Origin: Carboxylicivirga agarovorans
GTDB taxonomy: Bacteria; Bacteroidota; Bacteroidia; Bacteroidales; Marinilabiliaceae
Direction of reading: 5' to 3'
NCBI RefSeq assembly: GCF_050589845.1
Contig: NZ_JBNGPA010000003.1
Location: 77,720 to 141,719, forward strand
Length of the DNA: 64,000 bases
Shown here: positions 18,907-44,039 of the stretch, one piece after another
How the letters are laid out: every line of letters begins with the position of its first letter
Numbering within the stretch: position 1 is the first letter of the stretch
Notes under the pieces: generated by a model
Told to the model about the DNA's origin: nothing
Database searches by the model: none
The model's input: the letters and a program-made list of their open reading frames with translations, nothing else
Program-made: the position numbers and the translations under genes

Positions 18907-19626
18907 ATGGAAAAATCAAAATCAGGCTCACCAATTTATAGGTATAATGAGTCAAACAAGAATGAATTTGAAGGAGCTTCCGGTGAAATGTCAATAGATG
19001 AAATTTCAGATCATATTGAGAAACACGTTGGCCAAATTCATATGGTATTTCATGAAATAATATCTGAACAGGTTCATATTGATGTGCACTGGGTTAAACC
19101 AACAAAAGAAAGGCCTTTTCATACATTAATTACATCAGGAATGAGCGACAAAGCGATGAATACTCCTGAAGGAGTTGAAAATTATGATTTCGCTGAATTA
19201 AGCATCTGCTTGCCTGAAGAATGGAAAATATCAGAAGAAGACTTTAATGATGAAAGAAATTACTGGCCAATAAGATGGTTGAAATACCTTGCCAGGTTCC
19301 CCCATGAATATAATACATGGTTAAGCTATGGTCACACGATACCAAATGGAGATCCAGCCGAACCATTCTCTGATAATACAAAACTAAATACGATGCTATT
19401 GCTACCAACAATCGTATTTAATGAAGAATTTCACACGCTCGAACTTGCCACTAAGTCAATAAATTTTTATACACTAATTCCTATTTATAATGAAGAACTT
19501 AAGTTGAAAATGAACAAGGGAGTAGAAGCCTTATTTGATGGTTTTGATAAATTCGGCGTAAATGATATTGTCCATACCGACAGACCTAATACCGCTAAAA
19601 AGAAAAAATTCCTCGGTCTATTCTGA
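18907..19626 (+). CDS. SUFU (suppressor of fused)-like domain protein
   Basis: SDHIEKHVGQIHMVFHE...VHIDVHWVKPTKERPFHTLITSGMSDKAMNTPEG matches the bacterial SUFU-domain pattern. Bacterial SUFU proteins are a known immunity-protein family of polymorphic toxin systems. Confidence 0.65.
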   Translation: MEKSKSGSPIYRYNESNKNEFEGASGEMSIDEISDHIEKHVGQIHMVFHEIISEQVHIDVHWVKPTKERPFHTLITSGMSDKAMNTPEGVENYDFAELSICLPEEWKISEEDFNDERNYWPIRWLKYLARFPHEYNTWLSYGHTIPNGDPAEPFSDNTKLNTMLLLPTIVFNEEFHTLELATKSINFYTLIPIYNEELKLKMNKGVEALFDGFDKFGVNDIVHTDRPNTAKKKKFLGLF

Positions 19627-23679: not shown

Positions 23680-23926
23680 AAGTTACCATGATTACAATGA
23701 ATCTAATATTTCATTAAGGTACTTTCTTGATTAAGCCCTTTAATCCCGCCCTAATGGGCGCTTTAATAAAATCACCGACATGGTTTACTACCATCTTTCA
23801 CCAACATGCCATCTTTCTCTTTTTCAACACACAACAAACTCTAATACCCATATAGCACAGTTGAGCATCGGTAAATGGCACAGGGCTTGGATAAGAGATA
23901 ACATGTTCCACTTAAACCTCACTATC

Positions 23927-27374: not shown

Positions 27375-28055
27375 CTAATAAACACTCATTGCCCCCCAAA
27401 GCTTGTCAAACTCCTTCTGATAGCTGTCAATTGCTTTTTTATCGTTGGTCTCAAGAATATTTTCCTGGTTAAACTGTGCAGCACTTCTTGTCCAGTTGTA
27501 ACTGCCGGTCAGCAATACCTCATCATCGAAGATAGCAAACTTATGGTGCATATGATGACTTGAATTGTCGACTTTCACACTGGCTCCTTTTCGCTGAAGA
27601 TATTCTATATCAGAACCTAAGTCGTTCGTTTTATCATCATCGGTTATTATTCTTACTTTAACGCCTTTGTTAATAGCATACTCCAGGCGATCCCTTATAT
27701 CATTGTCGCTGATGGTAAAAACACAAATATCAATTTTCCTTACAGCGTAACTGATCTGGGTAAGAATAGTAGATAAGCATTCCTGCCCCGGGCTAAAATA
27801 TGAGCGACAGTAAAAGCTTTGCCGCTCTTTCGGCAATATAAGCTTATTGGCTTCTTCCAGCCAGTCAATAACCTGAAGGTGTTTATAGTCACTGAAATGA
27901 TTCCGCGCTTCGTTAAAGACTTCGCTCCTGACACGATTCAGATCATGCTTACTTAGCTTCTTGTCACTGATGACAGATTTCAGGGCTTTCTTTTCTCCTT
28001 TGGTAAGAATTCTATCTTCAAGGGTTTGCTTTAAATAAGCTATTAGTTCTTTCAT
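27375..28055 (-). CDS. phospholipase D-family (single HKD motif) nuclease-like protein
   Basis: HHKFAIFDDEVLLTGSYNWT fits HxK(x4)D(x6)GSxN, the HKD signature of Nuc-type PLD nucleases. It has a ~90-aa helical N-terminal extension. Its ATG overlaps the stop of the upstream regulator by 4 bp (ATGA). Confidence 0.8.
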   Translation of the reverse strand: MKELIAYLKQTLEDRILTKGEKKALKSVISDKKLSKHDLNRVRSEVFNEARNHFSDYKHLQVIDWLEEANKLILPKERQSFYCRSYFSPGQECLSTILTQISYAVRKIDICVFTISDNDIRDRLEYAINKGVKVRIITDDDKTNDLGSDIEYLQRKGASVKVDNSSHHMHHKFAIFDDEVLLTGSYNWTRSAAQFNQENILETNDKKAIDSYQKEFDKLWGAMSVY

Positions 28056-28795
28056 AATTTATTTTGGATCGTTTTTTCAGTTAATCGGTATAGTTGTTCT
28101 TCCAGGCGATCAATTCGCTTTGATTCTGATTCACCTGAAAAACCGCCGATATATCTAATAACAGGATAATAATAATCAATATCATCAATATTTACCAGCA
28201 ATAAATCATAATCCACCTGTAAGATCAAAACAGTTTTGCCTGCTAATACTTTTAGCTTACTAATATAAATAGCACCACCTGTTTTAATCACATAATACTG
28301 ATCATTAGTAATGGATACCTGCTCTGTATCGACAATAATAATATCATTTTGCGTCATTGAATCGGGCATTGCTCTAAAGTCTCGAGGTGTGATATTAACA
28401 GCAACACATACGCCTGATCCCTCATTTAAAGGCATTTGCATACTATCAATCTCTACTTCATTATCCGACAACACTTTTTCAATATCGTGCACTGCAGGGC
28501 AAAAAGGGATGCTTTTTAACTCATAAACCAACTTACTTGAATTTTTAAATGTCGGCTCATTACCCACATCAAAATGATAAAGTTCATTTACGGTTAGCTC
28601 TTTATTGATCAGTTCATCGATCGTAATACTAAAATATTTAGCAACCCGATTAATTAAATCAATTTTAGGTTCTGCCCTCCCCTCTTCATATGAACCAACG
28701 CTAGCCCTTGATAAATCAAAGATTTCAGCAAATTCAGTCTGACTTATCTTTTGTATTGAACGTATCTTTCTAATATTACTTCCAAAATAACTCAT
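28052..28795 (-). CDS. XRE-family HTH transcriptional regulator with S24/LexA-like C-terminal domain
   Basis: N-terminal Cro/C1-type HTH (IRKIRSIQKISQTEFAEIFDLSRASVGSYEEGRAEP). C-terminal beta-rich domain of the LexA/CI peptidase S24 type. Catalytic residues were not verified. Confidence 0.65.
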   Translation of the reverse strand: MSYFGSNIRKIRSIQKISQTEFAEIFDLSRASVGSYEEGRAEPKIDLINRVAKYFSITIDELINKELTVNELYHFDVGNEPTFKNSSKLVYELKSIPFCPAVHDIEKVLSDNEVEIDSMQMPLNEGSGVCVAVNITPRDFRAMPDSMTQNDIIIVDTEQVSITNDQYYVIKTGGAIYISKLKVLAGKTVLILQVDYDLLLVNIDDIDYYYPVIRYIGGFSGESESKRIDRLEEQLYRLTEKTIQNKL

Positions 28796-28989
28796 AAATT
28801 ATTGCTAATTCTATTTGCACCAATAAAACATTTCGCTATATTTGCTAATGTGATTGTCAAAAGAACAAAAAAAACAATAGAAATGCTAACCAACCTAACT
28901 CTTTCTTATGATTTTAAATAACCTCCCTATGTTTAATGAGACAATATTTTTTTTAAATTCAAAACCCGAAAAATGATTAAACCACTCTA

Positions 28990-29388
28990 ATGATGGAAAA
29001 CTATTTTAAAAAAGTTAAGAATTACCTTTTGGAACTGGATTGCGAAGTAGTTAACGAAAACGAGAGCGAGGGCGTTCTTGTCGTTACTAAGCCCGAAGAA
29101 GGAATTGTCAATTTAGTTTTAGGTTGTGTCGACCCTCTCCTAATCATGGAGCAATTTATTTTTGAAATTAATGGGGATAACATGAGTGTGTTCAAGCAGT
29201 TACTGATGAAGAACCGGGACATTGTTCACGGCGCCTTTGTGCTCGACGAAACTGGTCACAAGGTCATATTCAGAGATACCCTTCAAATTGAAAACCTTGA
29301 TCTAAACGAATTAGAAGGTTCTATTAATTCATTAAGCCTTTTGCTTAGTGAGTATGCCAATGAAATTATTAAGTTTTCTACAAATTAG
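28990..29388 (+). CDS. small acidic protein upstream of pspA (possible PspA-associated / YbjN-like)
   Basis: 132 aa with no TM helix. It ends 8 bp before the pspA start. Family assignment is tentative. Confidence 0.35.
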   Translation: MMENYFKKVKNYLLELDCEVVNENESEGVLVVTKPEEGIVNLVLGCVDPLLIMEQFIFEINGDNMSVFKQLLMKNRDIVHGAFVLDETGHKVIFRDTLQIENLDLNELEGSINSLSLLLSEYANEIIKFSTN

Positions 29389-29396
29389 AGTAAGCC

Positions 29397-30110
29397 ATGA
29401 ACGTATTTAGTAGATTATTCAGAATAGGAAGTGCCGAGGCTCATTCGGCAATAGATAAGTTAGAAGATCCCATTAAAATGACCGAACAAGGTATTCGCGA
29501 TCTTAAAACAAACTTAGATGACAGCTTAAAAGCTTTGGCTGAGGTTAAAGCCTTATCTATACGTGCGAAAAACGACTACGAAAACAACCGTTCCCGCGCA
29601 GGCGAATACGAAAACAAAGCCATCCTTTTACTTAAAAAAGCGGAAAAAGGAGAATTAGCAGCTGAAGAAGCTGACCGCCTGGCAACAGAAGCCCTTACTA
29701 AAAAGGAGGAGTGCTTGAGCATGGCTTCACAAAAGCAAGGTGAAGTAACCCGCTTTGAACAGAATCTGGCGCAATTAGACAGCAACATCAAGAAGCTGCG
29801 CTCACAAATCAGCACATACGAAAACGAATTAAAGACGCTGAAAGCACGTGTTAAGGTCAGTAAAGCTACGAAGAGCATTAATAAGCAAATGGCACAGATC
29901 GACTCCGACAGCACCATTAGCATGCTCGAAAAAATGAAAGAAAAAGTTGACCAGGAAGAAGCATTGTCTGAAGCTTATGGTGAGATCGCCAATGAATCAA
30001 AGTCATTGGATGACGAAATTGATTCTGCCCTTGGAGGAAATAAAGCTGAAGCCGCTGAATCATTAGCCGAGCTAAAAGCTAAATTAGGTTTAGATAAAAA
30101 AGAAGAATAA
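29397..30110 (+). CDS. pspA: PspA/IM30 family protein (phage shock protein A)
   Basis: MNVFSRLFRIGSAEAHSAIDKLEDPIKMTEQGIRDLKTNLDDSLKALAEV... aligns along its whole length with E. coli PspA ([40 protein letters not shown]...). Coiled coil throughout. Confidence 0.9.
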   Translation: MNVFSRLFRIGSAEAHSAIDKLEDPIKMTEQGIRDLKTNLDDSLKALAEVKALSIRAKNDYENNRSRAGEYENKAILLLKKAEKGELAAEEADRLATEALTKKEECLSMASQKQGEVTRFEQNLAQLDSNIKKLRSQISTYENELKTLKARVKVSKATKSINKQMAQIDSDSTISMLEKMKEKVDQEEALSEAYGEIANESKSLDDEIDSALGGNKAEAAESLAELKAKLGLDKKEE

Positions 30111-30127
30111 TTAATAGTTAAAGGTTA

Positions 30128-30922
30128 ATGCCACTGGCATTAACCTTTTTTGTTCAATTGACAATCGTTGGTTTCGCTTATCCGGAACCAATAATAACCA
30201 ATCCAAATCCCTCTGTCATGAAGGAATTATTTGAAGCTGCCTTTTCAGGAGTAAACATCATCCCTACAGTACTGTTAATCCTCGTATTATTCTATTGGCT
30301 AATGGTGATCATTGGCGCAATGGATGTTGACTCGGTTGACTTTGATCTGGATGCTGATATTGACGTTGATGTAGATGTGGATGTCGACGTAGATGTGGAT
30401 GCTGATGTAGATGTGGATGCCGACATTGATGGCGCCGATTCTGCAGGAGAAGGCATTGGCTCGATAGCATTCCTAAACTCAATATTGGTCTTTTTTAACC
30501 TTGGTAAGATCCCATTTATGGTATGGCTGAGCTTTCTGATCTTCCCGATGTGGATCATATCCATATTGTTTAACCACTTTATGGGTAACAGCTCATTCTT
30601 ACTGGCATTAGTAGCATTGATACCAAACCTGGTTGTAAGTCTTATGGTTTCAAAAGTTCTTACAACACCCATTGCAGCGCTATTCGCCAGACTTAAAAAG
30701 AACAATGACGACCAGTTTAAATACACAGGTAAAATATGCACTGTGTTGATGCGTGCTACCCGCGATAGGTTTGGCCAGGCAGAAATAAACAGAAATGGCA
30801 ACATCTACCGTGTTAATATTCTTACACATGACGAGGTAATATTGGAAAAAGGCCAGACAGCCCTGATAATAGAATACCTACCCGAAAAGAAGTGTTATTT
30901 AGTCGAACCCTATAAAATTTAA
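30128..30922 (+). CDS. YqiJ/NfeD-like membrane protein with acidic (DV)n tract and C-terminal OB-fold
   Basis: Multiple TM helices. (DV/DA/DI)n tract DADIDVDVDVDVDVDVDADVDVDADIDGAD. C-terminal beta-rich segment (GKICTVLMRATRDRFGQAEINRNGNIYRVNILTHDEVILEKGQTALIIEY) is typical of NfeD-like domains. It lies immediately upstream of a flotillin gene, as in E. coli yqiJK and B. subtilis ydjH-ydjI. Confidence 0.6.
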   Translation: MPLALTFFVQLTIVGFAYPEPIITNPNPSVMKELFEAAFSGVNIIPTVLLILVLFYWLMVIIGAMDVDSVDFDLDADIDVDVDVDVDVDVDADVDVDADIDGADSAGEGIGSIAFLNSILVFFNLGKIPFMVWLSFLIFPMWIISILFNHFMGNSSFLLALVALIPNLVVSLMVSKVLTTPIAALFARLKKNNDDQFKYTGKICTVLMRATRDRFGQAEINRNGNIYRVNILTHDEVILEKGQTALIIEYLPEKKCYLVEPYKI

Positions 30923-30929
30923 AAGCATA

Positions 30930-33071
30930 ATGGAAATGATTCAATCTCTTGGCATAAGTGCCATTGTTTTTCTTGTCATTGTTATTATCGGTATTATATC
31001 GTTAATAATCAAAACTTACCGCAAAGCCACTCAAGGCCAGGCTATGGTGCGTACAGGTGCCGGCGGTGCAAAAGTAACCTTTACCGGTATGTTTGTCATT
31101 CCTATTCTTCACCGCATGGAGATTATGGATATCACCCTTAAAACGGTTGTTATTGAACGTATGGGCAAGGACGGTCTGATCTGTAAAGACAACATGCGGG
31201 CCGATATCAAAGTTGCTTTCTTTGTTCGCGTAAACAAAACCAGCGAAGATGTTATCCAGGTGGCTCAGTCAATTGGCTGTAACAGAGCATCTGATCAAAA
31301 GTCGCTGGTTGAGCTCTTTGACTCTAAATTCTCAGAGGCTCTTAAAACTGTTGGTAAGCAATTTGAGTTCGTTGAGTTATATAACTCACGTGAAAAGTTC
31401 AAGCATGAAATCCTCAATATCATTGGCACAGACCTGAATGGTTACATCCTTGATGACTGTGCCATTGACTTCCTGGAGCAAACGCCTCTCGAGTCATTGT
31501 CTGAAGACAACATCCTGGATTCAGAGGGTATCAAAAAGATTGTGGAGCTTACCGCCAAACAGAAGATCCTTTCTAACCAGATTGAGCGCGACAAGCAAAA
31601 GACAATTACCAAGCAAGATGTTGAGGCGCGTGAAACGGTATTGGAGCTGGAGCGTCAGTTAGCTGAGACAGAAGAAAATCAGAAGCGTGAAGTAGCTAAC
31701 ATCAAAGACCGCCAGGAAGCTGAAGTGAAAAAAGTGGCCGAAGAGCAACGCTTAATCGCTGAAAAAGCGCGCATTGCAACTGAAGAAGAAATCGCAGTGG
31801 CCGAAAAGAATAAGGAGCGCCAGGTTGTTATCGCCGATAAAAACCGTGAACGTGTTGAGGCGGTTGAAACAGAAGCTGTGGAACAAGAGCGTGAGCTTAA
31901 GTTAACAGAGCGTCAGCGCATCGTTACTCTTGCTCAGATTGAGAAGGAGAAGGAAGTGGAGATGCAGAAGAAGCAGATCCAGGAAGTGATTCGTGAGCGC
32001 GTAGAAGTTGAGAAAGCTACTGTTGCCGAGCAGGAAAAAATCAAGGACACGCAGGAGTTCGCTACTGCTGACAGGGCTAAGAAAGTGGCTATCACAAAAG
32101 CGGAAATGGATGCAGAAGAAGCATTTGTACGTGAAATCAAATCGGCCGAGGCTGCTAAAAACGCCGCAGAACACAATGCTAAAACTCGTTTGATTGATGC
32201 TGAAGCAGAGTTTGAGGCTGCCGGTAAGAAAGCCGAAGCCAGCAAAATTATGGCTGAAGCAAAAGCCGCCGAAGAAGCTGCCATCGGAGTTGCTGAAGCA
32301 CAGGTTATCGAAGCCAAGGCTGACGCTATGGAAAAACAAGGCCTTAACGAGGCTAAAGTAATGGAGATGAAAGCAGAGGCAGAAGCTAAAGGCAAAAAAG
32401 CCAAAGCTGTTGCTGAAGCTGAGTCCATTCAGCAAATTGGTTCATCGGAAGCAGAGGTTATCAAAGCTAAAGCGGAAGCCGAAGCGGAACGAGGACAAGC
32501 TGAAAACAAAGTACTGGACGAGCGCAATGCAGTTGAAGCCAAAGGCATTGAAGAGAAAGGTATGGCAATGAAGAAGCTGGATGCTGTTGGTCGCGACCAC
32601 GAAGAGTTTAAGCTGAAATTAGACATGCAAAAAGAGCTTGAGCTGGCACGCATCAATATCCAGAAAGGTATTGCTGACGCTCAGTCACAAGTGATTGCCG
32701 AAGCATTAAAAGCTGCTAACATCGATATCGTTGGTGGAGAAACAATGTTCTTCGATAAGATCATCGGTTCAATTACTCAAGGTAAGCAGGTTGATAAAGT
32801 GGTTAAGAACAGTGAAATCATCAGTGATATTAAGAATCACTTCTTCGATAGTTCTGACGGCAAAAGCTTTAAAGATCAGTTTGCCAGCTTTATCGATCAG
32901 TTTGGCATCTCATCTGAAGATGTGCGCAACCTAAGCATCAGTGCCCTGATAGGCCGTATGATGCAGGAGAACTCCGACGAGAAAACGGGTAGCATGCTTA
33001 GCAGCCTGAACGATATCGCTAAAAGCTTAGGCGTATCAAACAGCACCGCTAAAGCATTGGGCATCGTTTAA
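30930..33071 (+). CDS. flotillin / SPFH (band 7) domain protein, YqiK-like, with long Ala/Glu/Lys-rich coiled coil
   Basis: N-terminal TM helix, then SPFH core (GQAMVRTGAGGAKVTFTGMFVIPILHRMEIMDITLKTVVIER...). Low-complexity EA/KA coiled-coil region. 713 aa. Confidence 0.85.
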   Translation: MEMIQSLGISAIVFLVIVIIGIISLIIKTYRKATQGQAMVRTGAGGAKVTFTGMFVIPILHRMEIMDITLKTVVIERMGKDGLICKDNMRADIKVAFFVRVNKTSEDVIQVAQSIGCNRASDQKSLVELFDSKFSEALKTVGKQFEFVELYNSREKFKHEILNIIGTDLNGYILDDCAIDFLEQTPLESLSEDNILDSEGIKKIVELTAKQKILSNQIERDKQKTITKQDVEARETVLELERQLAETEENQKREVANIKDRQEAEVKKVAEEQRLIAEKARIATEEEIAVAEKNKERQVVIADKNRERVEAVETEAVEQERELKLTERQRIVTLAQIEKEKEVEMQKKQIQEVIRERVEVEKATVAEQEKIKDTQEFATADRAKKVAITKAEMDAEEAFVREIKSAEAAKNAAEHNAKTRLIDAEAEFEAAGKKAEASKIMAEAKAAEEAAIGVAEAQVIEAKADAMEKQGLNEAKVMEMKAEAEAKGKKAKAVAEAESIQQIGSSEAEVIKAKAEAEAERGQAENKVLDERNAVEAKGIEEKGMAMKKLDAVGRDHEEFKLKLDMQKELELARINIQKGIADAQSQVIAEALKAANIDIVGGETMFFDKIIGSITQGKQVDKVVKNSEIISDIKNHFFDSSDGKSFKDQFASFIDQFGISSEDVRNLSISALIGRMMQENSDEKTGSMLSSLNDIAKSLGVSNSTAKALGIV

Positions 33072-33082
33072 AACAAATACAT

Positions 33083-33113
33083 TAACGCTTCCCGGGTCAT
33101 TCGGGAAGCGTTA
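33083..33113 (+). terminator. rho-independent terminator-like hairpin (TAACGCTTCCCG-ggtcatt-CGGGAAGCGTTA) followed by a T-rich tract
   Basis: Perfect 12-bp stem, 7-nt loop, then ttcctacttttctgc. It lies 12 bp after the flotillin stop and 83 bp before the giant ATPase start. Confidence 0.55.
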
Positions 33114-33195: not shown

Positions 33196-36100
33196 ATGTC
33201 TGATAATCAAAACACCACAGATAAAAACATACAGCTTGAAGAAGGCACCTACGAAATCATCAAAAACAGATTACGTAAGAGTGCCGGAGAATTAGGTCAA
33301 AGGTTAGAGCAACTCAATACCTCACGTAAAGATGTGTTTGGCTCCATTGAAAGTACACTGGTCGCCACCGATCGTATCGGTACCGAAAACAACTGTACTC
33401 CCGCCGACATGGTTGCCCTGGGTAACACATTGCTTTTTGGTTATAATGTAACCATGGGATTAAAGACTAAAACTTCACTGGACGATGTGTTTAGTGTCTA
33501 CAACTTCAATGAGCACGCCTTTGACCAGAAGAATATGAACATCATTAATGACTCTCAGTTCATTAATGATTTCGACAACCTGTATGAGTATTATAAAGAA
33601 ACGCAGTTTAAGAAATTTGCAACAATCGGTCCTCATCTGTTTATGGTGTTTCAGACGGGGAAAAGTAAAGACGACATAAAAGCATTCAAATGGCTGATCA
33701 AAGGTGATCATTTAGAATATAAAGGCAACAGGAGTACACATGAATTTGTATTTCCCGATCAACATGAATTTAAGTGGGAAAAAGTAACTCGTGAACAGTA
33801 TGTATATGGCGAGCACCCGCATGTCTCCATCGAAGATAAGGTCTTTGTTGAAGCCGTTGGTGGAGATATCACTTTTAAGATAGAGGATAATACGGATTCT
33901 GGTTATGGTATATATGCCGAAGAGGTGGAGGTAAAAGACCAAACCCTTGATGATGCTGAGATGCATTATGCCATCATTGGTAACCTTATCATCATTCGCA
34001 TACTGCCCTATAAAGAGAATGAGTTCAGGTATTTCGTTTACAACTCAAAAATCCAGAAGGTCCAGCGCATCGATGCCCTGGAGGATTCATGCGTTCTTTT
34101 ACCGGATGATCAGGGACTGATCTTTGCCAATGGATATTATTTGCAGAATGGACAATTCAAGCTTTTCGACAGAGACATTAAAGGGTTAATGTTTGAGCGG
34201 AAGCTGGCTTCCATCAACGGAGAGGATTTTCTTTATACTTTTTACAATCAAGATATTGGTGCTTATGTATTGTTGATATACAACTTAATCAATCAACGCG
34301 TTGAAACACCAATGATCTGTAATGGATATTCATTGTTTGACAATGGTGAGTTATGCTACTTTAAAAAGCCCGATGAACCAACCCGTCATCATGTCATCCA
34401 GGTATGGCAAACACCCTTTATGACAGTCGAACACCAGGTGGCACCAACAAATAATTCACGTTTATACAAAATCGGCAATAAGGATGTTGTAAAAGCCATG
34501 GCTGAATGTAACGAAGTCATCCTGCTTGTTAATAAAGATGAGACCTATGCCGACATATACGGAGATCTGGTAAAACGCTGTACCGACGTTATTGACAGCT
34601 ATTACTGGCTATCTGAAGAAGATGCTTTTGATATTAAAACGCCGCTTACTGAAATTAAAGAATCGGCATTTTCGGCCATCGCCGAATATGAAAAAGTCAG
34701 AAACATTCGCAAGAATACCAAAGAACGGATCAAAGAGGTAAGCGACAAGGTTAATGAAATATTCAGCCACATATCCAAGCAGCAAATTGGAGATATTGAC
34801 CGCTACGTCGAATTACTGGCAGCACTGCGAACTGTCAGAGGTGAGGTAATTGGCCTGAAAGAACTGCGTTATGCGGATTTACCATACATCGAAGAACTGG
34901 AGAATAATGTCGAAGAGAAAACCGTTCGTTTATCACAGGATTGCGTCACATTTCTGCTCAGGGATGAAGCCCTTAATTCATACGAGGAAAAAGTCAATAA
35001 CATACGCGAGAATGTAGGCAAAATTGCTAAAGTCAGTGAAGCAGATGATCTATCAGACGAGATAATAAAACTGGCTGGCCAGCTGGAAATGCTTATTGAC
35101 ATAGTGAGCAACCTGAAAATTGAGGATGCCACTCAAACAACACAGATCATTAACAATATATCAGGGGTATATTCACAATTCAACCTGATAAAAACAGACC
35201 TTAAAAAGCAACGTAAAAGCCTGAGGGCTGTTGAAGCCAAAGCTGAATTCAACTCGCAGCTGAAGCTGGTTGAGCAAGGTATGCTAAATTACATCGACCT
35301 TTGCGACTCTCCGGGTAAAACAGATGAGTATTTATCCAAACTCATGGTTCAACTGGAAGAGCTGGAAGGTAAGTTCTCTGATTTTGATGAGTTTATGCCA
35401 ACCATTGCCGAGCGACGCGAGCAGGTCTACAATGCTTTTGAATCCAAAAAGCTTAGCCTGGTTGAGGAACGTAACCGCAAAACCACAGCTCTGCAATCAT
35501 CTGCCGAGCGCATTTTGAAAGCTATACGAAGTCGCGTATCCAAGTTTAAAGAGACCAGCGAGGTAAACGGCTACTTTGCGTCAGATCTGATGATTGAGAA
35601 AGTGCGCGATGTCATTACACAGCTTAAAGAGTTGGATGACAGCGTTAAGGCCGACGACCTGGAGAGTAAATTAAAGTCTTTAAAGGAAGAAACGATACGA
35701 CAGATCAAAGACCGCACTGAGCTGTTTGAGAACGGTGCCAACATCATTAAGTTTGGTAATCACAAGTTCTCTGTCAATACCCAGGCTTTGGAACTTTCAA
35801 TGGTCAATAAAGATGGAAGCATGTTCTACCACCTGACCGGAACAAACTTCTTTGAAGAAGTGAAAGACACAGAGTTTATCGCAACAAAAGATATTTGGAA
35901 CCAGCTCCTGCCCTCTGAAAACAATACTGTTTACAGGGCGGAATACCTGGCCTATGAAATATTCAATGCCTCTAAAAACAAAGCAGAAGGTCACCTGTCG
36001 ATTGCCGACCTGGCCGAATTAGATACAAAAGCCCTGGTAGAGCATGTTCAGAAAATAATGTCCTTGCGTTTTAGCGAAGGCTATTCAAAAGGAGTACATG

Positions 36101-38094
36101 ATATTGATACAGCCATTATCCTGAAACAACTTCTGGATGTATACAAAAATGCCGGCCTGCTTCGCTACCCTGCTGATGCAAGAGCAATGGCAGAGTACTT
36201 CTGGAAAGTATATTGCTCTGAAGATGTGCGATCAGATTTAAATAATAACCTGAAAGGTGCCGGGTTGATCATCAAGGTTTTCCCCGACACACATCAGTTC
36301 GATTATTTGCTGGATACTTTGGTTAAGATGCTTGAAGAATTTCAGGCGGCCGAACAACTATTTAATGAACAGAGCATTGAAGATGCAGCTCATTTCCTTT
36401 TCCACCAGATGCTGGAATCCGATGAATTCATCATCTCCAAGGCAGCCATCAGTCACATGGATGGATTTGTAGCATACTTAAGAAAAAACAGGGCTACAAA
36501 AACTTACGAAGAATCATTAAAGCCTTTATTAAAGGACCATCCCAACGCCTATCGCCTGATCACTAAATGGGTAAAAGCCTATTTGGATATGGAAGGTAAA
36601 CCGGCAGAATACCTGAATGAGATAAGCATCACCCTCTTACTTGATTCTAAATTGCGTAAAAAGCTGATCGATCAGCCTGTGTCATCTGAACTAAAAGGTT
36701 TAAAAGGATCGCATCAGTTGATCAGTGAGAATAAGTACCAGTTCCACTTTAATGCTTTTATGGCTAAGCTGACTGGCTTTAGCCGTTTGGTTGTGCCTAA
36801 GTTTGAGAAGTACAATATACTGAAGAAGCAACTGACAGATTCATTCTCAGAAGAACTGCGCCTGAATGAATTTAAACCCCGTGTATTGTCCTCATTTGTC
36901 AGGAACAAATTAATTGACAAAGTTTATTTTCCACTGATAGGTAATAACCTGGCCAAACAAATAGGTGCTGAGGGAGCCGGCAAACGAACTGATTTAATGG
37001 GCATGCTGTTGCTGATCTCTCCTCCGGGTTATGGTAAAACCACATTAATGGAGTACCTGGCAAGTCGCCTTGGCATCATATTCATGAAGATCAATGGCCC
37101 ATCCATTGGACACACCATTACTTCACTGGATCCTTCTGAAGCTGAAAATGCAGCAGCCAGGGAAGAGCTTGAAAAACTAAACCTGTCTTTTGAGATGGGC
37201 GACAATGTAATGATCTACCTGGATGATATTCAACATTGCAACCCTGAGTTCCTGCAGAAATTTATTTCACTTTGTGATGCACAGAGAAAGGTAGAAGGCG
37301 TATACAAAGGTAAAAGTAAAACCTACGACTTCAGAGGTAAAAAAGTATGCGTGGTAATGGCGGGTAATCCATACACAGAAAGTGGTGAGAAGTTTAAAAT
37401 TCCGGACATGTTAGCCAACAGGGCCGACATCTATAATATTGGTGACATAATCGGAGGGTCTGATGAAGAATTTAAGTTGAGCTACATTGAAAACTCCCTC
37501 ACCTCCAATCCTGTATTGAATAAGTTGGCTTCTAAAAGCCAGAAAGACTTATATACACTTATTTCCATCGCCCAAACAGGCAGTAAAGACGGACTTGAAT
37601 TTGAAGCATCACACACACCGGAGGAAGTCAATGAATATGTGACCGTACTTAAAAAGCTGTTGACAGCGCGTGATGTTATTCTGAAGGTGAACCTGGAATA
37701 TATCTCTTCAGCTGCTCAGGCCGATGAATACAGATCCGAGCCACCGTTTAAATTACAAGGCTCTTACAGGGATATGAATAAGATATCGGAGAAAATTTTG
37801 CCGATCATGAATGATCAGGAACTGGAAACATTGCTTTTGTCTCACTATCGCAATGAAGCACAGACACTGACAAGTGGCGCCGAAGCTAACATTCTTAAAT
37901 TTAAAGAGATATACGGTGTAATCACAGCCGAAGAAACGGAACGCTGGACTGAACTGAAAGAAACCTTTGTCAGAAATAATAAATTGAAGGGAATGGGTAG
38001 CGATAAGCAGGCTGCACATGTTCTGGTTCAGATGGAGGAAATTGCCAAAGGTGTATTCGGCATTAAGGATGAGATTGGTAAGAACAAGAATTAA
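33196..38094 (+). CDS. giant (1632 aa) protein with a single MoxR-type (AAA_5-like) AAA+ ATPase module near the C-terminus
   Basis: Uninterrupted 4.9-kb ORF. Walker A LLLISPPGYGKTTLMEYL. Walker B VMIYLDDIQHC. CVVMAGNPYTESGEKFKIPDMLANRADIY parallels the MoxR motif [23 protein letters not shown]. About 1200 aa of mixed alpha/beta and coiled-coil sequence precede the ATPase with no other P-loop. A degenerate GAEGAGKRT sits just upstream of the true P-loop. Confidence 0.85.
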   Translation: MSDNQNTTDKNIQLEEGTYEIIKNRLRKSAGELGQRLEQLNTSRKDVFGSIESTLVATDRIGTENNCTPADMVALGNTLLFGYNVTMGLKTKTSLDDVFSVYNFNEHAFDQKNMNIINDSQFINDFDNLYEYYKETQFKKFATIGPHLFMVFQTGKSKDDIKAFKWLIKGDHLEYKGNRSTHEFVFPDQHEFKWEKVTREQYVYGEHPHVSIEDKVFVEAVGGDITFKIEDNTDSGYGIYAEEVEVKDQTLDDAEMHYAIIGNLIIIRILPYKENEFRYFVYNSKIQKVQRIDALEDSCVLLPDDQGLIFANGYYLQNGQFKLFDRDIKGLMFERKLASINGEDFLYTFYNQDIGAYVLLIYNLINQRVETPMICNGYSLFDNGELCYFKKPDEPTRHHVIQVWQTPFMTVEHQVAPTNNSRLYKIGNKDVVKAMAECNEVILLVNKDETYADIYGDLVKRCTDVIDSYYWLSEEDAFDIKTPLTEIKESAFSAIAEYEKVRNIRKNTKERIKEVSDKVNEIFSHISKQQIGDIDRYVELLAALRTVRGEVIGLKELRYADLPYIEELENNVEEKTVRLSQDCVTFLLRDEALNSYEEKVNNIRENVGKIAKVSEADDLSDEIIKLAGQLEMLIDIVSNLKIEDATQTTQIINNISGVYSQFNLIKTDLKKQRKSLRAVEAKAEFNSQLKLVEQGMLNYIDLCDSPGKTDEYLSKLMVQLEELEGKFSDFDEFMPTIAERREQVYNAFESKKLSLVEERNRKTTALQSSAERILKAIRSRVSKFKETSEVNGYFASDLMIEKVRDVITQLKELDDSVKADDLESKLKSLKEETIRQIKDRTELFENGANIIKFGNHKFSVNTQALELSMVNKDGSMFYHLTGTNFFEEVKDTEFIATKDIWNQLLPSENNTVYRAEYLAYEIFNASKNKAEGHLSIADLAELDTKALVEHVQKIMSLRFSEGYSKGVHDIDTAIILKQLLDVYKNAGLLRYPADARAMAEYFWKVYCSEDVRSDLNNNLKGAGLIIKVFPDTHQFDYLLDTLVKMLEEFQAAEQLFNEQSIEDAAHFLFHQMLESDEFIISKAAISHMDGFVAYLRKNRATKTYEESLKPLLKDHPNAYRLITKWVKAYLDMEGKPAEYLNEISITLLLDSKLRKKLIDQPVSSELKGLKGSHQLISENKYQFHFNAFMAKLTGFSRLVVPKFEKYNILKKQLTDSFSEELRLNEFKPRVLSSFVRNKLIDKVYFPLIGNNLAKQIGAEGAGKRTDLMGMLLLISPPGYGKTTLMEYLASRLGIIFMKINGPSIGHTITSLDPSEAENAAAREELEKLNLSFEMGDNVMIYLDDIQHCNPEFLQKFISLCDAQRKVEGVYKGKSKTYDFRGKKVCVVMAGNPYTESGEKFKIPDMLANRADIYNIGDIIGGSDEEFKLSYIENSLTSNPVLNKLASKSQKDLYTLISIAQTGSKDGLEFEASHTPEEVNEYVTVLKKLLTARDVILKVNLEYISSAAQADEYRSEPPFKLQGSYRDMNKISEKILPIMNDQELETLLLSHYRNEAQTLTSGAEANILKFKEIYGVITAEETERWTELKETFVRNNKLKGMGSDKQAAHVLVQMEEIAKGVFGIKDEIGKNKN

Positions 38095-38112: not shown

Positions 38113-38526
38113 ATGGACTTTAGAAATTACTTTGATTCAGCAGAAGCACAACTGGCTTTATTTATTAAAATGGCCAAAGCAGATGGTGAAATAATACAGG
38201 CAGAAATGATGTTTTTAAAATTACTGGCCCACAAGCTGGAGATTAAAAGCAGTGATTTTGACGCCATATTGGATAACTATGAAAAATATAAGTATTTACC
38301 GCCTGCCAATGAGAAAGAGCGCTTTATGACTCTTTATATTCTTATCCAGATGATGAAAGTGGATCTGTCTATGAAGGAAGAAGAAGTGGAGTTTTGTCTT
38401 GAAATAGGCAAACGCCTTCATATAGATGACAATAAAATGAGAAGTATCATTGAGCTCTCGAAAGAACAGGAGAAGAAGGTAGTAGGCTACGAGGAGATCG
38501 AGAAACTTTTGATGCCTGTTATATAA
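38113..38526 (+). CDS. TerB-like (tellurite-resistance TerB / DjlA-N-like) small helical protein
   Basis: LALFIKMAKADGEIIQAEMMFLKLLAHKLEI and a second helical repeat resemble the TerB domain pattern (IAKADGxxxxxEl..l..lA..Lgl). It starts 18 bp after the giant gene's stop. Confidence 0.45.
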   Translation: MDFRNYFDSAEAQLALFIKMAKADGEIIQAEMMFLKLLAHKLEIKSSDFDAILDNYEKYKYLPPANEKERFMTLYILIQMMKVDLSMKEEEVEFCLEIGKRLHIDDNKMRSIIELSKEQEKKVVGYEEIEKLLMPVI

Positions 38527-38735: not shown

Positions 38736-39137
38736 ATGAACTGCCCAAGATGCCAGCACCCACTTGCTGTCACACATATTGACGATTGCAAAACAAGCAT
38801 TGAAGTTGACAAATGTCCAAACTGCAAAGGCGTTTGGTTCGATAAGGATGAGCTGAGTCAAATTGAAGGCATCATCGAACCAATGTTTATTGAGATAAGA
38901 GACATACCTGATAAGCAAGAACAGTTTGAAACGCTGCATTGCCCTAAATGTAACAATTCTCCCCGCCTGCAAAAAGCAATTCACCCGCGCGACAGTAAGG
39001 TCGTTATCGATTATTGCCCATATTGCGATGGCATTTGGCTCGACAAGGGTGAACTGGAAGCCATACAACAAGAAAATTTCATTATTACCATAGCAAAGAT
39101 CTTTACCTGCTTAAGTCGTATAAGATCACGTAAGTGA
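38736..39137 (+). CDS. tandem TFIIB-type zinc-ribbon protein, paralog of 8935..9327
   Basis: CPRCQH...CPNCKGVWFDKDELSQI and CPKCNN...CPYCDGIWLDKGELEAI. Roughly half the residues are identical to the 8935 copy along the full length. Confidence 0.7.
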   Translation: MNCPRCQHPLAVTHIDDCKTSIEVDKCPNCKGVWFDKDELSQIEGIIEPMFIEIRDIPDKQEQFETLHCPKCNNSPRLQKAIHPRDSKVVIDYCPYCDGIWLDKGELEAIQQENFIITIAKIFTCLSRIRSRK

Positions 39138-40998: not shown

Positions 40999-42123
40999 AT
41001 GCAAGAAATAAGAATGGTGGATCTTCAGGCTCAGTATAAACGACTGAAACCTGAGATTGATGAGGCAATGGCCGATGTTATTGAGCAAACGGCTTTTATA
41101 AACGGCACCGCTGTTAAAACGTTCCAGGGCAACCTGGAAAAATACCTGAAAGTAAAGCATGTCATTCCCTGTGCCAACGGAACCGACGCACTGCAGGTGG
41201 CCCTTATGGCTCTTGGTTTAAAGGAGGGTGACGAGATCATAACCTCTACCTTTACTTTTATAGCCACAGTCGAAGTGATTGCCCTCTTAAAACTCAAACC
41301 TGTACTGGTTGATGTTGATCTGAATACCTTTATGCTTATACCGGAGCAGGTTGAAGAAGCTATAACTGAAAAAACAAAGGCCATTATCCCGGTGCACTTA
41401 TTCGGCCAGGGAGCTGATATGAACCGTTTAATGGAGATTGCACACAAGCATCATCTCAAAGTTATTGAAGACACCGCTCAGGCCATTGGCAGTAATTACC
41501 AGTACAACAAGCAGGTTCAGAAGCTTGGCACCATTGGTGACATAGGCTGTACGTCCTTTTTCCCATCTAAAAACCTTGGGTGCTTTGGTGATGGTGGAGC
41601 CTGTTTTACCAATGATGATGATCTGGCGGCTCAAATGAGAATGATCGTCAACCATGGTTCGGAAAAAAAATACCACCACAAGGTTATAGGCGTCAATTCT
41701 CGCCTCGATACACTGCAGGCATCAGTTTTAAACGTAAAATTAAGAGAGCTGGATGACTTTAATGATCGTCGGCGCAAGGCTGCTGATTTTTATGACGGCG
41801 CCTTTAAAGATCACAATGCCATTCAAATACCGACCAGAACGCAAGGGTGCGTTCATACTTTTCATCAATACACCCTTCGGGTTAAAGATGGTAAACGTGA
41901 TGAACTCCAGGCCTATCTGAAAGAAAAAAAGATTCCTTCAATGGTATATTATCCGGTGGCACTTCACCTGCAAGAAGCATTTGGGCATTTTATGAAAAAA
42001 ACGCATAACTTACCCAATGCCGAGCAACTATGTAAAGAAGTACTGTCTTTACCTATGCACACAGAGCTCTCCATTGAGCAACTAAATTATATTACGGACG
42101 CCATCCTGGCATTTTTTGAGTAA
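40999..42123 (+). CDS. DegT/DnrJ/EryC1/StrS family PLP-dependent sugar aminotransferase (WbpE-like)
   Basis: MVDLQAQYKRLKPEIDEAMADVIEQTAFINGTAVKTFQGNLEKYL...PCANGTDALQVALMALG is the canonical DegT N-terminus. Confidence 0.85.
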   Translation: MQEIRMVDLQAQYKRLKPEIDEAMADVIEQTAFINGTAVKTFQGNLEKYLKVKHVIPCANGTDALQVALMALGLKEGDEIITSTFTFIATVEVIALLKLKPVLVDVDLNTFMLIPEQVEEAITEKTKAIIPVHLFGQGADMNRLMEIAHKHHLKVIEDTAQAIGSNYQYNKQVQKLGTIGDIGCTSFFPSKNLGCFGDGGACFTNDDDLAAQMRMIVNHGSEKKYHHKVIGVNSRLDTLQASVLNVKLRELDDFNDRRRKAADFYDGAFKDHNAIQIPTRTQGCVHTFHQYTLRVKDGKRDELQAYLKEKKIPSMVYYPVALHLQEAFGHFMKKTHNLPNAEQLCKEVLSLPMHTELSIEQLNYITDAILAFFE

Positions 42124-42128
42124 CAAAT

Positions 42129-42713
42129 ATGAATGATCAAGACTATTTTTTTCATGAAACCGCTGTCATTGATGACAACTGCACTATTCATAAAGGTGTA
42201 AAAATCTGGCATTTCTCGCACATTATGTCAGGTTGTGAAATAGGTGAAAACTGCAACCTGGGACAAAATGTGGTTGTATCGCCAGATGTGAAGCTGGGCA
42301 AGAATGTCAAGGTGCAGAATAATGTATCTATTTATACAGGCGTCATTTGTGAAGACGATGTTTTTTTGGGTCCGTCAATGGTTTTTACCAATGTTACCAA
42401 CCCGCGAAGCGCCGTTAACCGACGTGGTCAATATCAAACGACCGTTGTTAAAAAAGGGGCTACTATTGGAGCCAACGCAACCATTGTTTGTGGTCATGAT
42501 ATTGGCGAATTTGCTTTTATTGGCGCGGGTGCGGTGGTCACTAAAACCATCCCGCCCTATGCCCTGGTGGTTGGTAATCCTTCACAGCAAATAGGCTGGA
42601 TGAGCGAGTATGGTCACCGTCTTGAATTCGATGCAGATGGTTTGGCCGTTTGCCCTGAAAGTAAAGAAAGATACAGACTAAGCAATGATACTGTTGAAAA
42701 AATAAACGATTAA
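42129..42713 (+). CDS. hexapeptide-repeat (left-handed beta-helix) sugar N-acetyltransferase (WbpD/PglD-like)
   Basis: Repeated [LIV]G-x4 hexapeptide units through residues 20-150. It lies 5 bp downstream of the aminotransferase gene. Confidence 0.8.
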   Translation: MNDQDYFFHETAVIDDNCTIHKGVKIWHFSHIMSGCEIGENCNLGQNVVVSPDVKLGKNVKVQNNVSIYTGVICEDDVFLGPSMVFTNVTNPRSAVNRRGQYQTTVVKKGATIGANATIVCGHDIGEFAFIGAGAVVTKTIPPYALVVGNPSQQIGWMSEYGHRLEFDADGLAVCPESKERYRLSNDTVEKIND

Positions 42714-42749
42714 ATCAATACAAACCATCTGAATAATAAAACCTCAACT

Positions 42750-44039
42750 ATGTTACAAGAATTACTAGCAAAAGAAAAGAAACTATCGGTTATCGGGCTT
42801 GGATACGTTGGCTTACCAATCGCTTTGGAGTTTGCCCGGAAAATGTCAGTTATCGGATTTGATATTAAAGAGGATCGTGTTGAGCTGATGCGCCAGGGTA
42901 TTGACCCGAGTAATGAACTTGAAGCTGAAGCTTTTGAAGGGTGCGACATTAAATACACCAGCAAGGCAGAGGACCTGAAAGAAGCTAATTTTCATGTGGT
43001 TGCAGTACCTACACCTATAAACACCCACAACCTGCCTGATCTGACTCCCCTCTTAAGTGCAACGCGCGCCGTTGGTAAGATTTTAAAGAAAGGCGACTAT
43101 GTGGTTTTTGAATCAACTGTTTACCCGGGCTGTACCGAAGATGATTGTGTACCAATTTTAGAAAAGGAATCAGGCTTGAAACTCAATGAAGACTTTAAAG
43201 TTGGTTTTAGTCCCGAACGAATTAACCCGGGTGATAAAGAACATACACTGACTAAGATCTTAAAGATCGTTTCAGGCAGTGATACCGGGTCAGCCAATGT
43301 AATTGAGGAGGTATATGCCAGTATAATTACCGCTGGTATTCATAAGGCCAGCTCAATAAAAGTAGCCGAGGCTGCAAAGATCATTGAGAACACCCAACGC
43401 GATGTCAACATTGCCCTGATGAATGAGCTGTCACTCATTTTTGACCGCATGGACATCAATACTTTTGAGGTACTCGAAGCGGCAGGCACCAAGTGGAACT
43501 TCCTTCGCTTCTTCCCTGGCCTGGTCGGTGGTCACTGTATCGGCGTTGACCCGTATTACCTGACCTATAAGGCGAATGAACTGGGATACCATTCCAAAAT
43601 TATTACAGGAGGTCGTTTTATAAACGATTCAATGGGTGGCTATGTGGCCAAAACAGTTGTTAAGAAAATGATCTCAAATGGCAATAAGATCAATGGCGCC
43701 AAGGTATTGATCATGGGAGCTACCTTTAAAGAAAATGTAAGTGACATTCGAAATTCAAAGGTGGCCGATGTTGTCAACGAGCTAAAATCGTTCAGCATAC
43801 AGGTGGATGTGGTTGACCCTCATGCATCGTCGGATGAGCTGCAGCACGAATATGGGTATGGATTAATCGAGAAAGTGACTGAAAAGTACAATTCTGTGAT
43901 CGTAGCTGTTAACCACGATGAATATGCTCAACTGGATGAGGATTACTTTAAAACAATAATGGTTAAAGAAGGTGTATTTGTTGATGTTAAAGGCATCTTC
44001 AGAGATAAAATCAAAGATCTGACATACTGGAGCTTATAA
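42750..44039 (+). CDS. nucleotide-sugar (UDP-N-acetyl-D-glucosamine/mannosamine) dehydrogenase, WbpA/TviB/WecC-like
   Basis: N-terminal Rossmann motif LSVIGLGYVGLPIALEF, VAVPTP, catalytic Cys region GGHCIGVDPYYL. Confidence 0.85.
   Translation: MLQELLAKEKKLSVIGLGYVGLPIALEFARKMSVIGFDIKEDRVELMRQGIDPSNELEAEAFEGCDIKYTSKAEDLKEANFHVVAVPTPINTHNLPDLTPLLSATRAVGKILKKGDYVVFESTVYPGCTEDDCVPILEKESGLKLNEDFKVGFSPERINPGDKEHTLTKILKIVSGSDTGSANVIEEVYASIITAGIHKASSIKVAEAAKIIENTQRDVNIALMNELSLIFDRMDINTFEVLEAAGTKWNFLRFFPGLVGGHCIGVDPYYLTYKANELGYHSKIITGGRFINDSMGGYVAKTVVKKMISNGNKINGAKVLIMGATFKENVSDIRNSKVADVVNELKSFSIQVDVVDPHASSDELQHEYGYGLIEKVTEKYNSVIVAVNHDEYAQLDEDYFKTIMVKEGVFVDVKGIFRDKIKDLTYWSL

Follow-up and report, generated by a model that had tools for sequence, protein, structure and literature searches.

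The window analysed here, a 64,000-nucleotide (nt) stretch of the Carboxylicivirga agarovorans genome (RefSeq assembly GCF_050589845.1, contig NZ_JBNGPA010000003.1, positions 77,720 to 141,719), encodes a soluble giant protein with one MoxR-like AAA+ module and intact catalytic motifs. Its gene is linked to genes for flotillin and an NfeD-like protein, recurrently to pspA, and to no gene for a vWA protein. We put the probability at roughly 55% that this ATPase works on flotillin/NfeD assemblies, and on PspA where it is present, as a remodelling ring machine, for which we infer the physical partner, the formation of a ring and the direction of remodelling. The kind of protein is already known, as the family is catalogued in Pfam and its operon was described computationally in 2024. 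Added here are the core link to flotillin and YqiJ, the NorQ/CbbQ-like fold, the invariant DD catalytic set and the absence of vWA linkage, along with the finding that neither the "DNA repair" name nor the "beta-propeller" label is supported.

Gene neighbourhood of the ATPase

To trace the cassette beyond the window, we searched 79 related loci for relatives of every window neighbour and separately clustered the flanking open reading frames (ORFs) without prior assumptions. Flotillin was linked in 66 loci, which equals 66 of the 70 (94%) with enough upstream sequence, and the linked gene was always on the same strand and directly upstream, with a median distance of 122 nt to the ATPase start. 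Linkage to a YqiJ-like gene was found in 53 of the 79 loci, to pspA in 29 (37%), to a helix-turn-helix (HTH)-S24 regulator in 24, to a CesT gene in 23 and to a phospholipase D (PLD) superfamily gene in 8, the last in several phyla and at several positions. The clustering yielded no further conserved neighbour, and the downstream side was without any conserved gene. The conserved cassette is yqiJ (NfeD-like)-yqiK (flotillin)-ATPase, with the ATPase last. Across phyla, flotillin/YqiJ is its core partner to a greater degree than PspA. SPFH operons typically include an NfeD-type partner.

The extension of this cassette by CesT, PspA and the regulator was essentially limited to Bacteroidota. In two Phycisphaerae (Planctomycetota) loci, pspA immediately follows the ATPase gene (L038:4736-5446 and L044:6757-7476; Pfam E=5e-21 and 3e-13), an independent arrangement that is unlike the Bacteroidota order and thus reinforces the link to PspA. 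An earlier note on this DNA had raised co-occurrence with vWA, TerB or SPFH genes. The SPFH part was borne out by the flotillins, whereas a TerB-like gene was linked in only 3 of the 79 loci, for which reason we rejected it as a core partner, and vWA genes were linked in none.

This last count bears on the partnership that the earlier note had expected, a canonical MoxR-vWA chaperone in which the ATPase acts via the metal ion-dependent adhesion site (MIDAS) of a nearby vWA protein. The window candidates are VIT-type proteins 6.4 kb and 26 kb away, with unrelated genes between and the farther one on the opposite strand. Both had been described as MIDAS-intact vWA proteins; the farther one combines a DVSGSM motif with a VWA domain, and the nearer has DVSGS and no Pfam VWA match. 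The TonB_C domain of the farther protein also suggests a periplasmic location. No relative of the upstream VIT protein was found within 10 kb of the ATPase in any of the 79 loci, no vWA family emerged from the unbiased clustering, and the vWA protein of Pontibacter is built differently (CarboxypepD_reg + YfbK_C). Both VIT-family proteins are unrelated to the ATPase cassette and have no counterpart close to the ATPase in other genomes. The MoxR-vWA partnership is not supported and is largely refuted by these context statistics, leaving it almost no probability.

Family identity and the nucleotide site

The gene was confirmed as an uninterrupted ORF of 1632 residues without a frameshift, and no transmembrane-like segment was found along its product, consistent with a soluble protein. 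The N-terminal ~1200 residues had been regarded as unassigned, yet Pfam places DUF3686 (PF12458) at residues 32-470 over the full profile length (E=2.8e-186; 619.9 bits against a cutoff of 25) and DUF7902 (PF25472) at residues 591-675 (E=6.7e-25; 87.6 bits), and AAA and AAA_5 match residues 1271-1396. A Carboxylicivirga sp. RSCT41 protein with 100% identity to it is called "DNA repair ATPase" at NCBI. Database matches to the ATPase number more than 3300 proteins, and the same Pfam domains occur in all 120 among the matches listed. With query residues 880-1632 set against 1.84 billion cluster representatives, 415 clusters matched at E<1e-30; the listed members of at least 1500 residues (n=71) are 1504-2036 residues long, with matching that begins at about residue 880 of each, and all four regions of the ATPase were found in 70-71 of these 71 full-length representatives. 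An exact-peptide scan with one genome per species gave at least 585 DUF3686 ATPase loci in Bacteroidota, Planctomycetota, Verrucomicrobiota, Kiritimatiellota, Desulfobacterota, Hydrogenedentes and one Firmicute, and an additional Firmicute metagenome-assembled genome (MAG) with such an ATPase turned up in a separate search. The ORF product is thus an orthologue within the DUF3686/DUF7902 family, known in databases as "DNA repair ATPase", and shares its three Pfam domains and length class with no difference.

Two public assemblies (L091 and L093) have the ATPase and flotillin genes split into many short called genes, most likely through assembly frameshift errors. The short "fragment" clusters in searches of the DUF3686 family may be explained in the same way.

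The catalytic motifs quoted in the earlier note are all present, about 5 residues downstream of its estimate. In an alignment of 72 full-length family members (33-53% identity), the P-loop, Walker B, sensor 1, candidate arginine finger and candidate sensor-2 arginine are invariant (Table 1). The gene is therefore real and unbroken, and selection acts strongly to keep its nucleotide site functional. Walker B reads DD rather than the usual DE (hhhhDE) in 72 of 72 members. A second, degenerate P-loop had been suspected just upstream in GAEGAGKRT (residues 1257-1265). We rejected this candidate because the motif is not conserved, with K1263 in 34 of the 72 members, and the segment forms the loop before strand beta1.

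Architecture and AAA+ clade

AlphaFold models of the ATPase, made as two halves, had mean predicted local distance difference test scores of 83.2 (N-terminal) and 82.9 (C-terminal). Residues 16-48 form a helix, and residues 54-405 are all-beta, with ~26 strands arranged chiefly as four-strand meanders. The structure search returned no propeller match for this domain, and neither hhalign self-comparison nor blade-versus-blade comparison revealed internal repeats within it. A helical rod follows, and then a middle region comprising a small beta element (~850-910), a helical domain (914-1133), strands (1156-1184) and a long helical hairpin (1185-1256), for which the structure search gave no match. 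Sequence searches of the PDB with the protein and the family profile likewise left the N-terminal 1250 residues without any match. In the AAA+ module, a basic pre-sensor-1 beta-hairpin (1365-1384, modelled at 1365-1378; 7 K/R in 20 residues) lies between helix alpha3 and the sensor-1 strand, and an additional long lid helix (1475-1507) precedes the sensor-2 helix in the model.

By fold, the AAA+ module is nearest to solved MoxR proteins. The top target-normalised template-modelling scores in Foldseek (0.53-0.59) belonged to CbbQ and NorQ, while the best E-value belonged to RuvB. Structure comparison scores were ~13.3-13.4 for ClpA/Hsp101/ClpB, ~12.6-12.9 for dynein/midasin, 11.6 for Vps4 and 10.8 for RuvB. 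At the sequence level, RuvB was the best AAA+ match. Pfam matches to the module were all weak (AAA, PF00004, 29.4 bits; AAA_5, 27.6 bits; RuvB_N), NCBIfam gave only sub-threshold RuvB matches (E=7e-5), and PDB sequence searches matched only the segment from the P-loop to beta2 (p97/Rix7/RuvB, E~1e-3). When the family profile was compared with nine E. coli AAA+ proteins by hhalign, RuvB came top (95.7%, E=1e-8), then ClpX (90%), FtsH (89%), Lon (88%) and YifB, with the MoxR protein RavA last (18%). The MoxR-like label of the earlier note thus stands by fold, and fails by sequence profile and by the DE expected in Walker B.

We take the module to be MoxR-like by predicted fold, nearest the NorQ/CbbQ type and of a highly divergent lineage. 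It differs from NorQ and CbbQ, whose vWA partners are NorD and CbbO, in belonging to a protein 4-6 times larger with ~1250 N-terminal residues, in its DD Walker B, in lacking a helix-2 hairpin in the model and in its missing vWA linkage. It also departs from classical AAA proteins of the Vps4 kind, which have no pre-sensor-1 hairpin and, in Vps4, carry an N-terminal MIT domain.

The affinity to RuvB, which is best both by sequence profile and by Foldseek E-value, could be taken to favour a DNA repair or translocating ATPase, induced via a LexA-like XRE-S24 repressor and with the PLD-family protein as nuclease. The NCBI and Pfam name, the basic pre-sensor-1 hairpin and the presence of a divergent HTH-S24 regulator and a PLD/Nuc-family gene would fit such a role. 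Yet Pfam, NCBIfam and PDB sequence searches detected no DNA-binding domain in the ATPase, its conserved partners are the membrane proteins flotillin, NfeD/YqiJ and PspA, and the unbiased clustering showed no repair gene conserved nearby. The name implies DNA repair, but we found no evidence for repair, and in the literature searched it is without experimental support; it was probably carried over from coiled-coil similarity to SbcC/Rad50-type proteins. We regard a repair function as very improbable.

A remodelling machine or a static scaffold

Under the remodelling reading, the C-terminal AAA+ modules would form an ATP-hydrolysing ring, like other MoxR-type modules (NorQ, CbbQ), and the covalently attached rod and N-terminal domain would replace the separate vWA adaptor of canonical MoxR systems. 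The rod and N-terminal domain would dock this ring on the cytoplasmic flotillin/NfeD assembly and, where present, on PspA polymers. ATP hydrolysis could then drive the assembly, disassembly or turnover of membrane scaffolds in envelope stress, a role functionally comparable to that of Vps4 on ESCRT-III. The earlier note was thus right in part, on the MoxR-like fold and on a large scaffold or motor, and wrong in part, on the unassigned N-terminus and the vWA partner.

Several observations weigh against this reading. The ATPase is linked to flotillin, YqiJ and PspA by gene neighbourhood alone, and 4 of the 70 informative loci have no adjacent flotillin, with no shared replacement gene among the four. 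The AAA+ clade is ambiguous, with profiles that favour RuvB, ClpX, Lon and FtsH and rank RavA lowest, and the helix-2 insert hairpin was not seen, as the model has no strands between beta2 and alpha2. The N-terminal fold carries a literature label, "beta-propeller", without confirmation here. Finally, DD in Walker B could point to slow hydrolysis and to an ATPase that acts as a switch instead of a motor.

This last point leads to the idea of a nucleotide-gated static scaffold, a tether between flotillin domes and other structures for which ATP binding is only an assembly switch and no mechanical work is done. The invariant DD, the long spectrin-like rod and the lack of an evident aromatic pore-loop motif between beta2 and alpha2 are all in keeping with it. 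By contrast, none of sensor 1, the arginine finger and the sensor-2 arginine varies in the alignment, and this speaks for selection on hydrolysis beyond binding alone. We consider a static scaffold unlikely, although it is the strongest of the rival explanations.

The operon in the window

In the window, the ATPase is the final large gene of a compact same-strand cluster (Table 1). The 713-residue protein encoded upstream of it matched E. coli YqiK in hhalign (probability 100%, E=5e-42; 99.9% for the SPFH part alone), and the 264-residue protein before that matched YqiJ (96.8%, E=2e-10). Pfam gave no match to either protein even at E<=10, although Pfam on YqiJ-like orthologues found YqiJ_N in 12 of 18 and NfeD in 4 of 18. 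Against the PDB, the flotillin alignment profile gave only a weak match to QmcA. The CesT/Tir-like and pspA genes are 8 nt apart.

Table 1. Features of the ATPase, its operon and the VIT-family genes, in window positions
Feature	Position	Strand	Basis or detail
Giant AAA+ ATPase gene, DUF3686/DUF7902/AAA family	33196..38094	+	1632 aa, single unbroken ORF
N-terminal helix and beta-rich domain (DUF3686), residues 32-470	33289..34605	+	Pfam; predicted structure
Helical rod, residues 422-843, spectrin-like helical bundles	34459..35724	+	Predicted structure, structure matches
DUF7902 within helical rod, residues 591-675	34966-35220	+	Pfam
Middle region, residues 850-1256	35743..36963	+	Predicted structure
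AAA+ alpha/beta core, residues 1269-1414	37000..37437	+	Predicted structure, Foldseek
Walker A SPPGYGKTT, residues 1275-1283	37018..37044	+	Invariant 72/72
Walker B IYLDDIQHC, residues 1340-1348	37213..37239	+	D1343-D1344-I-Q-H invariant 72/72
Sensor-1 N1391 (GNP) to candidate arginine finger R1409, residues 1387-1413, VMAGNPYTESGEKFKIPDMLANRADIY	37354..37434	+	G-N1391-P and R1409 invariant
Helical lid and C-terminal helical extension, residues 1415-1632	37438..38091	+	Predicted structure
Candidate sensor-2 R1525 in invariant QGSYR	37732-37782	+	Alignment of 72
YqiK-type flotillin, 713 aa	30930..33071	+	N-terminal transmembrane anchor, SPFH domain, long helical region, family-specific C-terminal region
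YqiJ/NfeD-like multi-transmembrane protein, 264 aa, acidic (D-x)n tract	30128..30922	+	hhalign
PspA/IM30 (bacterial ESCRT-III homolog)	29397..30110	+	E=1.3e-43
CesT/Tir-like chaperone	28990..29388	+	CesT_Tir_1 E=2e-56
Divergent promoter region, repeated TTGCTAA motifs (candidate operator or promoter)	28796..28989	.	Motif counts
XRE-HTH + S24 peptidase repressor, divergently transcribed	28052..28795	-	HTH_3 + Peptidase_S24
PLD (HKD) superfamily protein, sporadic accessory gene	27375..28055	-	PLDc_2 E=2e-31
TerB-like small protein, lineage-specific accessory	38113..38526	+	TerB E=6e-9; 18 nt after ATPase stop
VIT + DUF2135 + weak TPR protein, DVSGS motif	23780-26830	+	No Pfam VWA match
VIT + VWA + TonB_C protein, DVSGSM MIDAS motif	4843-7149	-	Pfam

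This arrangement corresponds to the CesT/Tir-PspA-flotillin-AAA+ operon described by Ravi et al. 2024 (mSystems 9:e00847-23, PMC11237479), who noted that shortened flotillin-YqiJ(-ATPase) operons are more widespread and proposed a general role in membrane dynamics. Their prototype, from Dokdonia donghaensis (ANH61663.1), has the same order and the same divergent HTH + protease gene in the supplementary table (PMC11237479). The window operon begins with CesT/Tir-like and then PspA, includes YqiJ and YqiK by hhalign, and has the regulator and PLD genes divergent, thus sharing gene order, orientation, the HTH + protease regulator and the occasional PLD; it differs in an extra TerB-like gene downstream. 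Our literature search for DUF3686 returned no papers, and no experimental study was found. Nor does any paper among the matches listed connect MoxR proteins with flotillin or SPFH, and Popp et al. 2022 make no mention of the ATPase.

Two observations on the downstream side touch this literature. A DUF4178 protein is encoded after the ATPase gene at L007:12554-13138 and at 4 other loci, and DUF4178 is a component of another CesT-PspA operon class (Ravi et al. 2024, PMC11237479). A further ORF, at 38736-39137 and 200 nt past the TerB-like gene, codes for a small protein containing two TFIIB-type zinc ribbons, which turned up in none of the 79 related loci; Zn-ribbon proteins are among the PspA neighbours of the same study (PMC11237479).

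Defence islands often contain large NTPases with sensor arms, PLD-family enzymes and cI-like XRE-S24 repressors. The operon could accordingly be an anti-phage or conflict module, with the giant ATPase as the infection sensor and with PspA, flotillin and PLD as effectors or protectants in abortive infection at the membrane, and the downstream flank of the Pontibacter locus does carry an integrase, group II intron reverse transcriptases and transposases. However, PADLOC (PADLOC-DB 2.0) returned no significant match for ten cassette and flanking proteins, with marginal matches only (mad8, E=0.0085; the PspA coiled-coil to JetC and LmuB). The synteny of the core cassette is near-uniform over many genera and phyla, unlike that of patchy mobile defence islands, and a PLD gene is found in only 8 of the 79 loci. 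We consider a defence function improbable, if less so than repair.

Several sequence features may bear on how the operon is regulated. The TTGCTAA 7-mer occurs in 20 of 24 orthologous divergent regions, at 5.8/kb compared to 0.31/kb over whole loci, and TTTGCTAAT is ~57-fold enriched in the divergent regions between the XRE-S24 and CesT genes. These repeats are a candidate repressor operator and/or a candidate Bacteroidota -7 promoter element (TAnnTTTG). Directly 3' of the pspA stop lies a T-tailed hairpin with a 13-bp stem (30120-30148), which may attenuate read-through to the downstream genes. According to the family alignment, the true start of the YqiJ-like gene is probably Met31 (nt 30218), in which case this hairpin would fall in an intergenic gap. 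The 124-nt gap between flotillin and ATPase holds a palindrome with a perfect 12-bp stem (33083-33113, TAACGCTTCCCG...CGGGAAGCGTTA), and a gap of like size (median 122 nt) is kept across 65 loci. This palindrome may set the ratio of flotillin to ATPase, either as an attenuator or as a site of RNA processing.

Two further features may bear on contacts between the products. No similarity to E. coli YqiK was detectable in the flotillin C-terminal region (residues 540-713, nt 32547-33068). In all 3 contigs sampled, one of them from a Clostridium paraputrificum MAG, a homolog of this region is encoded immediately before a DUF3686 ATPase. This conserved region is a candidate docking site. The YqiJ-like protein carries an acidic (D-x)n tract at residues 66-103 (nt 30323-30436, DVDSVDFDLDADIDVDVDVDVDVDVDADVDVDADIDGAD), with DxDxDxD in the family consensus. 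As the pre-sensor-1 hairpin of the ATPase is strongly basic, one could speculate that the tract is a substrate handle.

Elsewhere in the window, we noted a bacterial SUFU-family protein (18907-19626; Pfam SUFU, E=1.3e-47) and a 1306-residue histidine kinase with at least 5 PAS domains (10581-14504, minus strand). A sugar-nucleotide modification cluster at 40999-44039 encodes a DegT-type aminotransferase, a NeuD/PglB-type acetyltransferase and a TviB-like UDP-GlcNAc 6-dehydrogenase; it probably serves surface polysaccharide biosynthesis and is probably unrelated to the cassette.

Implications for membrane scaffolds

Two known pairings offer a comparison for the proposed remodelling machine. HflK/C-FtsH is an SPFH cage around an AAA+ protease, and both systems join a membrane scaffold of the SPFH family to an AAA+ machine. 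The window ATPase, however, lacks a protease domain and a transmembrane anchor, and its module is not FtsH-like. HflK/C are also periplasm-facing, whereas YqiK-type flotillins are cytoplasmic. The second pairing is that of Vps4 with ESCRT-III (Snf7) in archaea and eukaryotes. Here the AAA+ ATPase is genetically coupled to PspA, a member of the ESCRT-III superfamily, and as a remodeller of polymers it could plausibly be analogous to Vps4 in function. According to a 2025 review, a Vps4-like ATPase appears to be absent in bacteria (PMC7619361).

A bolder and distinctly more tentative extension, which we think has perhaps some merit but would not expect to hold in full, is that this family is to bacteria what Vps4 is to archaea and eukaryotes. 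As a ring ATPase of MoxR descent, with its fused rod and N-terminal domain standing in for the vWA adaptor, it would use ATP to disassemble or reshape flotillin (SPFH) domes and PspA (ESCRT-III) polymers on the inner membrane.

Bacterial flotillins and PspA/Vipp1 build large membrane-bound assemblies, the disassembly and regulation of which are poorly understood. Because its gene directly follows flotillin in at least 6 phyla and adjoins pspA in two gene orders, the ATPase is the obvious candidate for the missing energy-dependent step. The label "DNA repair ATPase" in databases probably misleads, and it is spreading through annotations. If the proposed role is true, it would provide energy-dependent turnover for scaffolds thought to be without a dedicated ATPase in bacteria, and this candidate role is testable in genetically tractable Bacteroidota.

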